A stretch of DNA of 64,000 bases, from positions 2,249-66,248 of the forward strand of contig CANIFU010000007.1 in the NCBI GenBank assembly GCA_947466965.1, read 5' to 3'. This document shows positions 56,622 through 62,741 of the stretch, piece after piece. The DNA is from Bacteroidota bacterium. GTDB taxonomy: Bacteria; Bacteroidota; Bacteroidia; 2-12-FULL-35-15. Under the pieces are notes generated by a model. It was not told the origin of the DNA and did no database searches. It was given only the letters and a program-made list of their open reading frames with translations. Positions within the stretch are counted from its first letter, which is position 1, and each line of letters starts with the position of its first letter. The position numbers and the translations under genes were made by a program.

Positions 56622-58223
56622 ATGAAAATTAAATTCTTCTTCTATTCTTCTATACTATGTATAGCCATCGCAATACTTGGTTTTTTTTATCCGAAAGTAT
56701 TATGGTCTTTTTTGCTTGTTGCTCCAATTGTTCTATTGGGAATTAAAGATGTACTCCAAACAAAACATAGTTTGAAACACAATTTTCCAATTATCGGACG
56801 CCTGCGTTGGTGGGCCGAATGGATGCGACCAAAGGTGTATCAATATTTTGTTGAATCGGATACTGACGGCGCTCCATATAATCGTTTGAGTAGAAATGTT
56901 ATTTATCAGCGTTCAAAAAAAGTATCAGACTCAACTCCTTTTGGAACGCAATTAAATGTTTATGAAGTAGGTTATGAATGGTTGAATCATTCCATTGCGC
57001 CACTGCCTTTAGAGAAAGGAGAGCAAAATCCGAGAGTTATTGTTGGTGGACCCAATTGCAAACAACCTTATTCTGCCAGCATCTTTAATATATCTGCATT
57101 GAGTTTTGGTTCTTTGAGTAAGAATGCAATTATGGCATTGAATAGTGGTGCAAAACTTGGTGAATTTGCCCATAATACAGGTGAAGGAGGCTTGAGCCCA
57201 TATCATTTAGCTCTAGGTGGTGATATTATCTGGCAAATTGGAACTGGCTATTTCGGTTGCAGAAATGTGGATGGTACTTTTAATCCCACTGCTTTTGCTG
57301 AACGCGCTGTTTTACCGAATGTAAAAATGATAGAGATAAAATTATCTCAAGGAGCAAAACCAGGACACGGAGGAATTCTTCCTGCTGCTAAGGTTACTGA
57401 AGAAATTGCAAAAATTCGTTTAGTTGAAAAAGGCAAGGAAGTTTTATCTCCTTCTTATCATAAAGCATTTGGTACACCTATAGAATTACTTGCTTTTATT
57501 AAACAATTACAAGATTTAAGCGGAGGTAAACCTGTTGGTTTTAAATTGTGTATCGGACAAAAAAGTCAGTTTATCGCTATTTGTAAAGCAATCGTGAAAA
57601 CCAATATTATCCCCGATTTTATTACTGTTGATGGAGGTGAAGGTGGAACAGGGGCTGCTCCTTTGGAGTTTAGTAATTCGGTGGGAATGCCTTTGAGAGA
57701 AGGCTTGGCTTTTGTTTATGATGCATTGAATGGCTTTGGATTAAAAAAACATATTAAAATTATTGCTTCCGGAAAAGTGCATACGGGATTTGATTTAGTG
57801 AAAAACTTTTCGCTGGGCGCAGATATGTGCAGTGGCGCAAGATCAATGATGATGGCTTTGGGTTGTATTCAAGCATTAGAGTGCAATTCCAATACTTGTC
57901 CTACGGGAGTGGCTACTCAAAATCCGAATTTATACAATGGGTTAAACGTTGATCATAAAAAAGTTCGTGTATTTAACTATCACCATGAAACGGTTAAAGC
58001 AGCAATAGAATTAATGTCGGCAGCTGGAATTGAACATCCTAATAATTTACATCGATCGCACATATACAGAAGAGTGAGCGCCAATAAAATTCAAACGTAT
58101 GCCGAGATGTATCCTTATTTATTAAAAGGATCTTTGTTGGAATCACCTTATCCAGAAGGCTGGGAATTTGATGTTATGCATAGCAGTGAAGAAACATTTA
58201 CTAATAGTTTGAAATATTCCTAA
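56622..58223 (+). CDS. FMN-binding glutamate-synthase-family protein (GltS FMN/Fe-S domain-like)
   Basis: Two N-terminal TM helices, then a GltS-type TIM-barrel region (HNTGEGGLSPYH...GGEGGTGAAP...CNSNTCPTGVATQ). Confidence 0.75.
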   Translation: MKIKFFFYSSILCIAIAILGFFYPKVLWSFLLVAPIVLLGIKDVLQTKHSLKHNFPIIGRLRWWAEWMRPKVYQYFVESDTDGAPYNRLSRNVIYQRSKKVSDSTPFGTQLNVYEVGYEWLNHSIAPLPLEKGEQNPRVIVGGPNCKQPYSASIFNISALSFGSLSKNAIMALNSGAKLGEFAHNTGEGGLSPYHLALGGDIIWQIGTGYFGCRNVDGTFNPTAFAERAVLPNVKMIEIKLSQGAKPGHGGILPAAKVTEEIAKIRLVEKGKEVLSPSYHKAFGTPIELLAFIKQLQDLSGGKPVGFKLCIGQKSQFIAICKAIVKTNIIPDFITVDGGEGGTGAAPLEFSNSVGMPLREGLAFVYDALNGFGLKKHIKIIASGKVHTGFDLVKNFSLGADMCSGARSMMMALGCIQALECNSNTCPTGVATQNPNLYNGLNVDHKKVRVFNYHHETVKAAIELMSAAGIEHPNNLHRSHIYRRVSANKIQTYAEMYPYLLKGSLLESPYPEGWEFDVMHSSEETFTNSLKYS

Positions 58224-58298: not shown

Positions 58299-59744
58299 TT
58301 AGAATCTTAATCCGAGTGATAACATAAAACTTGAATTCTTGTATTTGTTTTCTACCGCAGTTGCTTTCGGGGAATCATACAGATAATTATACTCGGTATA
58401 TTTTGTGAAGACGTATGCAAAGTCAATGAAGTACTTGTCCGCACGATACCCGATACCACCAGTATAACTTGTACGGTTAGCATTTTTGTTTTCATTGCTG
58501 CTAAACGGACTGCCATATAAAGCATATCCCAAGCGAATTGCAATTGGATCTAAACGGACTTCAGATCCAATACGGAGATTTCCTGTAGACGTATATTTTG
58601 ATAGGATAGTGCTGTTTACGTCGCTGAATACATTCGGACTCGAATGCAATTGAGCATAGGTATAGTCAACATATTCATACTCGACATTTAATAAGGCCAA
58701 TTTTTTTATGATAAAGCCAATGCTGCCGATGGCACGGAAAGGTGTTGTAATGGTGTAGGGCTCAAATAATCCTTGCGGAGAGATGGTGTCATACGTAATG
58801 CCGTTTTCCAGATCTGATTTCATTGAATTGTTGTAATCATCTCTCAACCTCAAAGAGGTTGGCGTATGGAAAGCGGCGCCAATTCTAACCCAGTCGTTCG
58901 GGCGGAAGATAGCGCCCAATTTTAGATTTACACCATTTCCTTTTGTAGTTAAATTTTGGGAAAAAGAAAACGATTTGAAGTCAGGGATTGTATCGGTTTC
59001 ATCAATTTCTTCATAGGTAGACTCTTCATGATATTTTGCTTTCACAAATCCGATGGTGCCACCTAAATACAATTTACTTTTATAATTTCCACCAAAGCTA
59101 ATTACCGTTTCACCCATTGCTCCAGTTGTCTCCACCACTTTTCTTTGTTTGATTCCATAGTGCTGTATCACATGGTTATAATTACCTAAAGTATCCGGAT
59201 TGATCAGATAGGTTTGATAAGCCAGATCGGTAGAAAACAGGTCGAAGCTGGAAGGGGGATTTCCATTTGCGTTTGCAACAAAAACATCCAACAGTGAACT
59301 CGTTTTATTGTCAGCCTGGATATCCATTCTGTTGTGGAAATTATTTGTTCGGTTGTAACCGAATCCGAAATTAATATTTTCCCAACCTGTTGTATTTGAT
59401 TCTTTAATGAGGTTGATACTTGCTACCAATCCGATGTTTCCTAAATTAAAATTAAGTTTACTATCGCTCGATGTATTTGAGTTGTATGTGGAAGAAGTGG
59501 TTTGTGAAAAAATAGAAGGAGTGATAGAGATCTCCGTTTTTTTGAATATTGCTAGGCCAGCCGGATTAAAGCTAAGCGTTGATATGTCGCCACCAAGAGC
59601 TCCCATTGAGCCCGCCATAGAAGCGAAACGGGCAGTTCCTCCAAATGTAATCTGTGAGTAACGCATTGCGTCAATATCATTTTGTGCTTGTAAATGCCAT
59701 GCACATAACAAGGCCATGCCGGTGATCAGAATTTGTTTTTTCAT
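58299..59744 (-). CDS. outer-membrane beta-barrel protein, FadL/OmpP1/PorV-like
   Basis: Signal peptide (MKKQILITGMALLCAWHLQAQ). N-terminal FNPAGLA hatch-like motif, a long beta-rich body and a C-terminal ...LGLRF. Confidence 0.55.
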   Translation of the reverse strand: MKKQILITGMALLCAWHLQAQNDIDAMRYSQITFGGTARFASMAGSMGALGGDISTLSFNPAGLAIFKKTEISITPSIFSQTTSSTYNSNTSSDSKLNFNLGNIGLVASINLIKESNTTGWENINFGFGYNRTNNFHNRMDIQADNKTSSLLDVFVANANGNPPSSFDLFSTDLAYQTYLINPDTLGNYNHVIQHYGIKQRKVVETTGAMGETVISFGGNYKSKLYLGGTIGFVKAKYHEESTYEEIDETDTIPDFKSFSFSQNLTTKGNGVNLKLGAIFRPNDWVRIGAAFHTPTSLRLRDDYNNSMKSDLENGITYDTISPQGLFEPYTITTPFRAIGSIGFIIKKLALLNVEYEYVDYTYAQLHSSPNVFSDVNSTILSKYTSTGNLRIGSEVRLDPIAIRLGYALYGSPFSSNENKNANRTSYTGGIGYRADKYFIDFAYVFTKYTEYNYLYDSPKATAVENKYKNSSFMLSLGLRF

Positions 59745-59826
59745 GTGACTGTTTTTTAAATTTCGAATCGCGTTTTCCATTTTCACATGGTGTGTATGTG
59801 AAAATGGAAAAGCGATTTAGAAAAAT

Positions 59827-61137
59827 TTACCTTCTTGGAGGTTTTGAACTTGCCGGTGTATTGTTGGGGGTTCCTCTGCTGGGGCTAGAAGAATTATTTC
59901 TTGGAGCATCATTTTGAGGCCTTTCGAATTTAGGTTGTTCAACCGGTTTTTGTCTGTCGTTATGATATACCGGATTTTCCTTGATCACCGGATTCTCCTT
60001 GTATACCGGTCTGTCGTTGTAAACGGGTTTCTCTTTATAAACCGGATTCTCTTTATAAACCGGATTTTCTTTATTAGCAGGCGTCTCTCTATAAGTTGGT
60101 TTTTCCTTATAAGCAGGATTGTCTGTTGATACAGGTCTGTTGTTATCTGGTTTGTAAGCAGGATTAACCGGGCCGGCAGGTTTTGAGTTGTCATTTCTGT
60201 TATCCGCAGGTTTATAAACAGATGCAGCAGAAGAGCTGGTATATACTGGTTTGATGCGTCCGTAATCATCTTTCGTCCAGTTTTCCGGATTGGCTTTTGC
60301 TTGTGTTTCAATCTCGGTCATCATGTGGCTTGCAAGAGAGGGTTGAGCAGTTACTCTGCCGTTTGAACCTGTCGTTCCGCGTGGTCCGTAGTAATAACTG
60401 TTATTGTCATAGCTATTGAAATAATTGTTGTTGTTTAAGCCACTGTAATATCCGTCCCAATATCCATTGTTGTAACCATTCATGTATGGATTATATCCGT
60501 ATCCGTAATTTCCATAGGGGTTGTATCCATAACTATATCCATAAGGGTTGTAACCGTATCCGTATGGATTATACCAAGGGTCGTATCCCCAACCCTGATT
60601 GCCATACCAGTAATAACTTGGGTTGTATGAATAGGTACTGTAACTTGGCCCCCAGAAATTGTAGCCCATGTAAACGCTTGTTCCGTAATTGTAGGGATCA
60701 CCTGTATACCAATAGGAGTTGGTATAATAGTTATCGTAGTAACCATAACTGCCACAGTTGTTGTGAAAACGTCTTAATCGGACAGAATAAGCGTCATCAT
60801 AATAATCGTCGTAGTTGAATGGTGTATTGTCGTTGTAATTATTGGTTGTGTTGTTAATGGTGGTTGTTCCATTATCTGATGGAGTGTAGTAGTCATCAGC
60901 TGGAGCGTCGCTGCTGCGTTTTGTATTCTGTGCAGCCAGTGCCGCCTCGTCCGCCTGCTTTTTTGCCTCTTCTTTTGCAAGGGCATCTTCTAGTTTACGT
61001 TTTTCCTTATCCGCTGCTTTGTCTTTTGATGAATAATAAATATCATCGCTATAAGTTTTTGATTGAGCTCCCTCCGGTGCTTTGCAGGCAGTAAACGCTA
61101 ATAAAAAGAAAGTCAGAATACTTAGAAAGGTTTTCAT
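59827..61137 (-). CDS. low-complexity lipoprotein (Tyr/Gly/Asn-rich core, hexapeptide xPVYKE repeat tail); paralog of 25033..26229
   Basis: Lipobox LLAFTACKA. Shares INNTTNNYN and NPAYKEK motifs with the 25033 gene. Has YGYNPYGY-type aromatic repeats and a C-terminal array of at least 7 NPVYKE-like hexapeptides. Confidence 0.7.
   Translation of the reverse strand: MKTFLSILTFFLLAFTACKAPEGAQSKTYSDDIYYSSKDKAADKEKRKLEDALAKEEAKKQADEAALAAQNTKRSSDAPADDYYTPSDNGTTTINNTTNNYNDNTPFNYDDYYDDAYSVRLRRFHNNCGSYGYYDNYYTNSYWYTGDPYNYGTSVYMGYNFWGPSYSTYSYNPSYYWYGNQGWGYDPWYNPYGYGYNPYGYSYGYNPYGNYGYGYNPYMNGYNNGYWDGYYSGLNNNNYFNSYDNNSYYYGPRGTTGSNGRVTAQPSLASHMMTEIETQAKANPENWTKDDYGRIKPVYTSSSAASVYKPADNRNDNSKPAGPVNPAYKPDNNRPVSTDNPAYKEKPTYRETPANKENPVYKENPVYKEKPVYNDRPVYKENPVIKENPVYHNDRQKPVEQPKFERPQNDAPRNNSSSPSRGTPNNTPASSKPPRR
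59970..60113. repeat. tandem 18-bp repeat array (CCGGATTCTCTTTATAAA-like units), coding for hexapeptide repeats on the minus strand
   Basis: Units at 59970, 59988, 60006, 60024, 60042 and 60060; neighbouring copies 60024..60041 and 60042..60059 differ at 4 of 18 positions. Confidence 0.85.
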
Positions 61138-61268
61138 TTTATACTTTAAATTGATGAAGGGGGATGATTTTTAAATCTTTTAAAATCGACAAAAGGTTTA
61201 ATTTTCTATTTTTACGATTCCTAAAGTCAATTATAAAATTACAAATACTATACCACAAAAAAAAGATT

Positions 61269-62741
61269 ATGAGCAAGGAGTTATCAACGAGAGAAGGAAA
61301 TTATTCTGAATGGTACAACGAATTAGTTGTCAAAGCAGATTTAGCAGAACATTCTGCTGTAAAAGGCTGCATGGTCATTAAGCCTTATGGCTATGCTATT
61401 TGGGAAAAGATGCAGCAGGCATTGGATAAAATGTTCAAAGATACAGACCATGTCAACGCGTATTTCCCCTTGTTCATACCCAAATCTTTTTTTAGCAAAG
61501 AAGCGAGTCATGTTGATGGATTTGCAAAAGAATGTGCCGTTGTGACACATTACCGTTTGAAAACGGCTCCTGATGGAAGTGTTGTGGTAGATGAAACAGC
61601 AAAGTTAGATGAAGAATTAATTGTTCGTCCGACCTCCGAAACCATCATCTGGAATACATACCGAGGCTGGATTCAATCGTACCGCGATTTACCTATATTG
61701 GTAAATCAATGGGCGAATGTGGTACGTTGGGAGATGCGGACACGTTTATTTTTGAGAACAACAGAATTTCTGTGGCAGGAAGGACATACCGCACATGCAA
61801 CATCAGCGGAAGCAGTAATTGAAACAGAAAAAATGCTGGGGATCTATGCAGAATTTGCAGAAAAGTGGATGGCGATGCCGGTGATAAAAGGAATTAAGAC
61901 AGCAAACGAACGCTTCGCAGGTGCGGTTGAAACCTATTGTATTGAGGCATTGATGCAAGATGGGAAAGCGTTGCAGGCAGGAACATCTCATTTCTTGGGA
62001 CAAAATTTCGCGAAAGCATTTGATGTAAAATTTGCAACAAAAGAAGGAACGCAGGAACACGTTTGGGCAACATCATGGGGGGTTTCAACCCGTTTAATGG
62101 GAGCTTTAGTGATGTCGCATTCGGATGACAAAGGTTTGGTTTTGCCTCCTAAATTAGCGCCATTTCAAGTAGTAATTGTTCCGATTTATAAAGGAGAAGA
62201 GCAATTGGCACAGATAAATGAAGTGGTTGCAAAGATGAAAAAAGCAATGGAAGCCAAAGGGATTACTGTGAAATACGATAACAGAGATACACAGCGTCCA
62301 GGTTGGAAATTTGCGGAATATGAATTAAAAGGAGTGCCTGTTCGAATAGCAATCGGAGGACGGGATCTGGAGAACGGAACCGTTGAGGTGGCGAGGAGGG
62401 ATACAATGGAAAAGGAAACGCTGCAGCAAGCCGACATTGAAAACAAGATCGAACATTTGTTGGAGCAAATTCAAGAAAATCTGTACCAGAAAGCAAAAGC
62501 AATGAATGATGCTAAAACTTATTCAGCCGATACGTACGAAGAATTTAAAAAGATTCTGGAAGAAACACCCGGTTTTATTATGGCACATTGGGACGGAACA
62601 CCGGAGAGCGAGCAAAAGATAAAAGAAGAGACCAAAGCGACCATCCGTTGCATCCCAATAGGTAATAAGCAGGAGCAGGGCTTGTGTATTTATAGTGGGA
62701 AGCCATCCACACAGCGGGTGGTATTTGCAAGGGCATATTAA
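61269..62741 (+). CDS. proS: proline--tRNA ligase (archaeal/eukaryotic-type class II ProRS)
   Basis: [27 protein letters not shown]... characteristic N-terminus, class II motifs and a C-terminal zinc-binding tail (CIPIG...C). The listed 61164 start is an AT-rich extension. Confidence 0.9.

Follow-up and report, generated by a model that had tools for sequence, protein, structure and literature searches.

Tandem repeats inside a coding sequence raise the question of whether their copy number is changed often enough to diversify a population, or whether they are ordinary coding repeats that drift slowly between lineages. We considered this question for a repeat array in a 64,000-nucleotide stretch of DNA from a Bacteroidota bacterium (hereafter the window; positions 2,249 to 66,248 of contig CANIFU010000007.1, assembly GCA_947466965.1), in which 18-bp units lie on the minus strand at 59959..60120, within the part of a lipoprotein gene (59827..61137, minus) that encodes the C-terminal tail of the protein. 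A previous sequence-only reading of the window had proposed that the array is a candidate contingency locus for length variation of a surface lipoprotein. Our results lead us to a different view, namely that the array is a coding repeat of an ordinary kind rather than a locus of rapid switching. The explanation that we favor, with a probability of roughly 0.7, is that it is a coding minisatellite within a tether that is disordered and rich in proline. Slippage or unequal recombination would add or remove units from time to time, with the encoded motif being selected and the number of units only loosely constrained.

The repeat array

The array comprises nine in-phase 18-nt units with the consensus AATCCGGTTTATAAAGAG, which encodes NPVYKE. 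Read from 60120 to 59959, the units encode NPAYKE, KPTYRE, TPANKE, NPVYKE, NPVYKE, KPVYND, RPVYKE, NPVIKE and NPVYHN, giving the general motif [N/K/R/T]P[V/A/T]Y[K/N/R][E/D]. A tenth, degenerate unit, RPVSTD, keeps the proline in phase and, if it is counted, the array spans 59959-60138 (minus). Across these 9-10 units proline occurs strictly at every sixth residue, and the array is rich in lysine and glutamate with a net charge of 0. All of the hexapeptides that the sequence-only reading had listed on the minus strand are present and in the same order, and the range that it had given for them, 59970-60113, is indeed occupied by the array, but is slightly short at both ends. Its statement that two adjacent copies differ at only 4 of 18 positions has to be corrected, as a unit mismatch matrix showed that the units at 60066-60049 and 60048-60031 (the feature 60031..60066, minus, consisting of two copies of AATCCGGTTTATAAAGAG) differ at 0 of 18 positions. 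These units are the sole identical pair, and the remaining pairs differ at 4-11 of 18 positions, that is, they are 39-78% identical.

Several measures place the periodicity of the array well above chance. Tandem Repeats Finder reported 5.4 copies of period 18 at 59969-60066, with 80% matches (80-81% over its rows) and 0 indels, as well as an additional row of period 36 at 60020-60124, and a gapless repeat search identified seven copies spaced 18 nt apart. All of the tandem arrays in the window with a score of at least 60, the 18-bp array and a 27-nt one, are in the lipoprotein gene. When the array was compared with itself at a lag of 18 nt, 103 of 144 positions were identical, a value that no codon shuffle reached, either among 2000 of the whole gene (mean 54.5, standard deviation (sd) 3.6, maximum 74) or among those of the tail only (mean 50.8, sd 4.6, maximum 68). 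The array cannot be attributed to misassembly because it was recovered with 0 mismatches in seven loci that derive from seven runs or assemblies. It has both of the properties that define a coding tandem repeat, or variable-number tandem repeat (VNTR): an in-frame period (a multiple of three) above chance and, as described below, whole-unit differences in copy number among relatives. It is an in-frame coding repeat, above chance, in a real and conserved gene. Deviations of the units from the consensus fall mostly at codon position 3 (24 of 36), and since they are mostly synonymous, we consider the units to be old and selection to act at the level of the peptide.

Copy number among related lineages

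In relatives at 91-97.5% nucleotide identity there are 7, 8 or 9 units, and the indels, all of exactly 18 or 36 bp, are within the array and map to the identical unit pair at 60031..60066. A comparison of copy number among relatives, which had been proposed as a check on the locus, thus gave steps of whole units and, given that the relatives differ in unit number, the situation that would have spoken against length variation, one and the same copy number in every related strain, is not what was found. Relative to the window, exactly 18 bp are missing from two loci (L001 and L003, 8 units) and exactly 36 bp from two others (L082 and L083, 7 units). Nine units were found in L002 and L084-L086, the sequences of which are diverged at the position of the indel, and also in L101, in which the two units of the NPVYKE pair differ by 1 nt. 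The latter was the one relative among 24 loci returned by a metagenome-wide scan with a conserved 17-mer flanking the array, and the scan therefore contributed one allele and not a population sample.

The same pattern was apparent at the protein level. The closest homologue belongs to a 90%-identity cluster that includes full-length proteins of 429, 435 and 441 aa, compared with 436 aa in the window. Gaps of 6 or 12 residues in the NPVYKE/KPVY units account for these length differences, together with a gap of 5 residues (IEQPK) found only in the window. It is important to note that the cluster list is not exhaustive, since the exact-sequence cluster look-up missed the window protein, which was found through the gene-position index. 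The window-specific gap stems from a 15-bp deletion in the window lineage (59898..59902, minus). The residues lost with it, IEQPK, form the second copy in a short direct repeat of EQPK, and the close relatives all keep this copy. In a 4.4-kb alignment of six genomes, covering the lipoprotein gene, the divergent proS gene and the gene for an outer-membrane barrel located downstream, the three largest indels (18, 36 and 15 bp) are all in the tail of the lipoprotein and the remaining indels, of 1-9 bp, are in the barrel gene. Based on the position of these largest indels, we consider the array to be a local indel hotspot.

To place these differences on a tree, neighbor-joining was applied to the adjacent barrel gene, which gave a total length of 0.208 substitutions/site and the following copy numbers: nine in the window, L084/L085 and L101, eight in L001/L003 and seven in L082/L083. 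Two lineages that are 97.5% identical in this neighboring gene differ by two units. At least two unit-indel events are required on the tree, and parsimony places nine units at its root, followed by two losses. Roughly the same number of changes would be expected from ten ordinary nucleotide sites, and the turnover of copy number between lineages is therefore slow and not that of hypermutation. The recent expansion that had been deduced from the near-identity of neighboring units is not supported, as the window retains the ancestral nine units and the losses are in its relatives. We also rejected the identical pair as proof of a very recent duplication, since nine units were present at the root and only ~1-2 differences per 18 nt are expected since the lineages split, and the pair therefore fits an old duplication. 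A separate observation concerns one relative, L087 (protein P0122), known from a single 2.2-kb contig, which has a 94-nt deletion in the tail at the equivalent of window ~60120-60215 that shifts the frame through the array. This allele could be a pseudogene or an assembly error.

Invariance within one clone

A database entry is 100% identical to the barrel protein, and through this entry and an exact look-up of the lipoprotein, the clone of the window was identified on 14 contigs derived from at least seven sequencing runs (ENA assembly ERZ28612946 and Logan runs ERR3761204, ERR3761205, ERR3761218, ERR3761219, SRR6754094 and SRR6787038). Seven of the clone loci were fetched, and they had 0 mismatches to the window across 2.4-4.3 kb and an identical array.

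The lipoprotein and its tail

The gene that carries the array encodes a 436-aa lipoprotein of an uncharacterized Bacteroidia family, for which its open reading frame (ORF) had no Pfam or NCBIfam family. Inspection of the translation identified a signal peptide and a lipobox ending at Cys18 (MKTFLSILTFFLLAFTAC; 61084..61137, minus). This cysteine shows no variation in two of our alignments (A1 and A2) and almost none in a third (A3). With a signal peptide, a lipobox and a conserved cysteine, the protein has the features of a predicted bacterial lipoprotein, that is, a putative substrate of signal peptidase II. The location of the array in the C-terminal tail of a lipoprotein, as the sequence-only reading had it, was borne out.

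Three regions were distinguished in the remainder of the protein. A charged alpha-helix at residues 37-77 (60907..61029, minus) is the only long confident element in the AlphaFold2 model, with a predicted local distance difference test (pLDDT) score of 92-96 over residues 41-70. A core rich in tyrosine, asparagine and glycine (28%, 16% and 16%, respectively) occupies residues 111-262 (60352..60807, minus), and has pLDDT <50 and many invariant Y/W/G/P columns in the alignment of 78 sequences. The C-terminal tail, residues 301-436 (59830..60237, minus), is proline-rich (18%) with a net charge of +8, is predicted to be disordered (pLDDT mostly <50) and ends in a conserved ...PPRR. The whole model, built from the 78-sequence alignment, has a mean pLDDT of 53.6, with confidence restricted to the signal peptide, the helix at 37-77 and a short helix at 268-282, and no fold search was undertaken with it because at this pLDDT any matches would be meaningless. 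Two side observations concern the core. It contains a second and weaker repeat system at 60391-60585 (minus), with 27-nt and related periods and GYNPYGY-type units, which had a Tandem Repeats Finder score of 64 and was recovered in gapless repeat families D3-D7. In addition, its Tyr/Gly/Asn composition resembles that of EL3, a Tyr/Gly/Asn-rich and as yet unexplained loop of Bacteroidota BamA (PMC12578637).

Database comparisons assigned no function to the family. A Pfam scan of the lipoprotein gave no match at E <= 0.1, a search of the PDB with a profile built from the family alignment yielded nothing above noise (ribosomal protein S21, E = 0.35), and an NCBIfam match to TrsH was judged to be spurious (16 bits versus a cut-off of 150). 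At E <= 0.001 there were 396 homologues, all unnamed or annotated as "hypothetical protein" except for one that has the JGI label "Ni/Co efflux regulator RcnB". Relatives are present in 422 GTDB species representatives, and the 80 that were fetched are all from metagenome-assembled genomes, with all but one labelled Bacteroidota.

Selection on the gene was assessed by comparison of the window with five relatives. The ratio of nonsynonymous to synonymous substitution rates (dN/dS) is 0.10-0.12 for the whole gene, 0.10-0.14 for the N-terminal part and 0.19-0.31 for the tail, versus 0.02-0.04 for the Tyr-rich core. Selection on the tail is therefore relaxed yet still purifying, and nothing points to diversifying selection. 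Runs of 3-10 in-phase units with the motif [K/N]P[V/A/S/T]Y[K/N][E/D] are present in genomes in which the protein shares 56-67% identity with that of the window. More widely in the family, a survey of the tails that follow a conserved YYYGPR motif (loci L001-L087) identified lineage-specific, in-frame DNA tandem repeats in 43 of 58 tails, with periods of 6-192 nt that are nearly all multiples of three. The tails are 165-372 aa long and in nearly all family members have a basic motif (PRR, RKR or GRR) at the C-terminus, which suggests a conserved role for this end of the protein. Based on these family-wide repeats, the birth and death of repeats is a general property of the tail, the far end of which is conserved.

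The predicted topology of the protein differs from that assumed when it was described as a surface lipoprotein. Surface lipoproteins of the Bacteroidota have an acidic export signal directly after the lipidated cysteine, which can be K-(D/E)2, Q-A-(D/E)2, SDDDD or SDDFE (PMC5080379). No such signal was found in the window protein, in which the residues after the cysteine are KAPEG, and in 60 of 68 family members the five residues that follow the cysteine include neither D nor E. Because this signal is missing, we infer that the lipoprotein would face the periplasm rather than the cell surface.

The proposed explanation and its alternatives

In the explanation that we favor, the array resides in the predicted disordered tail of a conserved Bacteroidia outer-membrane lipoprotein that is encoded upstream of a FadL-fold barrel gene. 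The encoded motif, [K/N]P[V/A/T]Y[K/N][E/D], is kept by purifying selection and the unit count would be under loose constraint. Replication slippage or unequal recombination between neighboring units would presumably add or remove whole 18-bp units now and then, with the outcome that related lineages would be one or two units apart while each clone would be stable. The tail itself may act as an extended spacer or tether with repeated short binding motifs, and the six-residue period suggests that Pro/Lys, Tyr/Asn and Val/Glu would be on separate faces of a polyproline-II-like rod.

There are a number of points that weigh against this explanation. A moderately raised slippage rate is compatible with our data, since consensus assemblies hide minority length variants and such a rate could go unseen. 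Similarly, the exact-sequence look-up used to find the clone retrieves only the same allele, and therefore biases the sample towards invariance, and a higher mutation rate could be hidden by selection against length variants. The overall confidence of the AlphaFold2 model is low (pLDDT 53.6), and low confidence of this kind would be consistent with disorder but is not proof of it. Lastly, the function proposed for the tail and the topology proposed for the protein are deduced from sequence, and the lack of a known export motif is weak evidence on topology in an uncultured lineage.

The alternative that survives best, although we regard it as doubtful, is that the proline-rich array is a length ruler, a polyproline-II-like rod similar to the proline-rich spacer of TonB. 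Such a rod would span a set distance in the envelope, and in each lineage selection would tune its copy number to the geometry of the envelope, as opposed to drift. The strict spacing of proline at every sixth residue through 9-10 units, the K/E-rich composition with no net charge and the maintenance of the motif across the clade are all in keeping with a rod, and a basic C-terminus (PRR/RKR) conserved throughout the family is what docking of the tail by its far end would predict. The confinement of tail length to 165-372 aa also fits a ruler, but the same range is a more than two-fold spread. Further, unit sequence and period (6-192 nt) are wholly different between lineages, nothing else was seen to change in step with unit number among close relatives (7, 8 and 9 units), and both the partner of the rod and its topology are hypothetical. 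A broader proposal, which we view as unlikely, is that the lipoprotein and the FadL-fold barrel form an undescribed and widely conserved Bacteroidia envelope module, present in 422 species representatives and always beside proS. The strongly conserved Tyr/Gly/Asn-rich core would then be the functional element, with the KPxYxE array serving as a tether of adjustable length to place the conserved basic C-terminus. If this were true, copy number would be an adaptive ruler and not the result of neutral drift.

Less probable again is that the array is a contingency locus, a hypermutable tract in which frequent gain and loss of units would alter the length of a surface lipoprotein, giving rise to pre-adaptive diversity in antigens or adhesion. 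The mutation rate of contingency loci exceeds that of a single site by factors of thousands to millions, and the rate observed here, at least two events per 0.208 substitutions/site, is orders of magnitude below that. The definition of such a locus requires high-frequency variation through localized hypermutation, and the array does share with simple-sequence contingency loci a localized, repeat-mediated length change in one gene (PMC11868660, Table 1). In favor of this possibility, the main length differences among relatives are whole-unit indels, a difference of two units separates lineages that are 97.5% identical in the neighboring gene, and there is one identical unit pair. However, high-frequency variation was not observed (in consensus assemblies, as opposed to reads), the array being invariant in all of the fetched clone contigs from seven runs. 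There is also no long perfect tract, as only two of the nine units (36 bp) are identical, and no frameshift switching, as a period that is a multiple of three makes on/off switching impossible. Also at odds with a contingency locus are a dN/dS of less than 1 (0.19-0.31 in the tail), the missing surface-export motif and the nature of the host, a free-living freshwater lineage of metagenome-assembled genomes.

The MBA repeat of Ureaplasma is likewise an 18-nt unit that encodes a Pro/Lys/Glu-containing hexapeptide. Size variation of lipoproteins in Mycoplasma and Ureaplasma, as in Vlp of M. hyorhinis, Vsa of M. pulmonis and Ureaplasma MBA (PMC7954426), is a further argument for a contingency locus, of which these proteins are the nearest functional analogues, and they resemble that of the window in being lipoproteins with C-terminal, in-frame tandem repeats whose number sets protein length. 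In contrast to the array described here, in which the units are degenerate and the clone is invariant, the Mollicute arrays have many near-identical units that change at high frequency in clonal cultures, and the proteins are on the exposed surface of wall-less pathogens, with demonstrated phenotypic effects. No homology to Vlp, Vsa or MBA was detected in the Pfam and NCBIfam scans or in the PDB profile search.

The weakest alternative, that the periodicity serves a DNA- or RNA-level function (such as protein-binding sites or mRNA structure) or an overlapping gene in another frame, is highly improbable, as although ORFs of 71 and 108 aa in other frames overlap the array and the relative P0122/L087 is read in an alternative frame, the unit differences cluster at third codon positions of the main frame, this frame is conserved in ~400 homologues, the repeat itself gives rise to the ORFs in other frames as a by-product, the allele of L087 stems from the 94-nt deletion on one ~2-kb contig, the array is ~1 kb from intergenic sequence, and in distant relatives the peptide is conserved but the nucleotide unit is not.

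Among known systems, the array has clear similarities to the coding minisatellites (VNTRs) of bacterial envelope proteins, including head-to-tail units in multiples of three, whole-unit differences, a low-complexity, proline-rich region and presumed slippage or unequal recombination. It differs from them in being short (9-10 units) and mostly degenerate, in belonging to an uncharacterized family, and in that variation was seen only between lineages that are 2.5-8% diverged and not within the clone. A comparison can also be made with TonB, which has a proline-rich periplasmic spacer, (EP)n/(KP)n. Both have periodic proline with alternating Lys/Glu, probably in an extended, non-globular envelope segment, but the hexapeptide here contains tyrosine, the anchor would be a lipid in the outer membrane instead of an inner-membrane helix, and there is neither a TonB C-terminal domain nor homology.

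Neighboring genes

The gene downstream of the lipoprotein gene (58299..59744, minus) encodes a 481-aa outer-membrane barrel that was assigned to the FadL fold based on Pfam, AlphaFold2 and Foldseek. It matched Toluene_X (PF03349) with E = 4.6e-11 (42.3 bits, cut-off 29.7), its AlphaFold2 model has a pLDDT of 76.8 and a predicted template modelling (pTM) score of 0.72, and Foldseek matched it to FadL, TodX and FadL-homologue chains of beta-barrel assembly machinery (BAM) complexes at E-values of 1e-9 to 7e-16. The best matches in the PDB were the FadL-homologue chains of the BAM complexes of B. thetaiotaomicron, F. johnsoniae and P. gingivalis (E ~1e-15, template modelling (TM) score 0.53-0.65, 12-14% identity), which were barely ahead of E. 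coli FadL, and a sequence profile search of the PDB reached only a Pseudomonas FadL homologue and no BAM-complex chain. With a fold match marginally above that of E. coli FadL and 12-14% identity, the barrel was not assigned as BamG. An identity as PorV, of the type IX secretion system, was rejected given a PorV_fam score of 26 bits versus a cut-off of 90, and in the fold search the type IX secretion complex chain 8gl6_F, which we take to be PorV, was far below FadL. The downstream gene is therefore designated as a FadL-fold barrel, with no finer assignment.

The gene order, with divergent proS followed by the lipoprotein and the FadL-fold barrel (window 58299-62741), is kept in 80 of 85 related loci, and in the other five the sequence stops within ~600 bases past the lipoprotein match. 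Since the lipoprotein and barrel genes are on the same strand, they are probably co-expressed. Between the lipoprotein stop and the barrel start is a hairpin with a 22-bp stem (59766..59817, minus; -29.4 kcal/mol, z = -6.5), in which a comparison of 11 relatives revealed compensatory changes at 11 of 20 pairs, indicating a selected intercistronic structure. No T-run follows the hairpin, and it may possibly act as a terminator, an attenuator or an mRNA-stability element. On the other side of the lipoprotein gene, the longest proS ORF is 525 aa and some relatives are called at 490 aa, such that the first 35 codons (61164-61268, plus) may precede the true start. A shorter proS, if true, would widen the divergent promoter region common to proS and the lipoprotein gene. 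Further downstream, three independent Logan contigs of the window's clone (L112-L114) all terminate at window 57755, within a glutamate-synthase-like gene (56622..58223), which hints at a strain-variable or repeated boundary.

Pairs of a FadL homologue and a lipoprotein have been reported in the Bacteroidota, namely BamG-BamH and the Bt1785-Bt1786 operon (PMC12578637). The locus in the window is similar to BamG-BamH in that a lipoprotein gene adjoins the gene for a FadL-fold, 14-strand-type barrel. Unlike BamH, which is a folded, arch-like scaffold with a DUF4270 domain and an export signal, the lipoprotein here is mostly predicted to be disordered, had no match to DUF4270 (Pfam, E <= 0.1) and has no export signal, and these last two differences led us to conclude that it is not BamH. 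Consistent with this, the PDB profile search identified no BAM-complex chain.

Significance

In-frame repeat polymorphism in envelope proteins is already well known, and the array is in itself of little weight, being one more slowly changing in-frame repeat in a disordered, proline-rich tail. Its unit number (7, 8 or 9) could nevertheless serve to mark closely related populations of freshwater Bacteroidia. The host gene is the more useful finding, as it represents a large lipoprotein family without annotation, in strict pairing with a FadL-fold barrel and with a Tyr-rich core under extreme purifying selection. Now that FadL homologues are known to be subunits of the BAM complex in Bacteroidota, this pairing could merit experiments.

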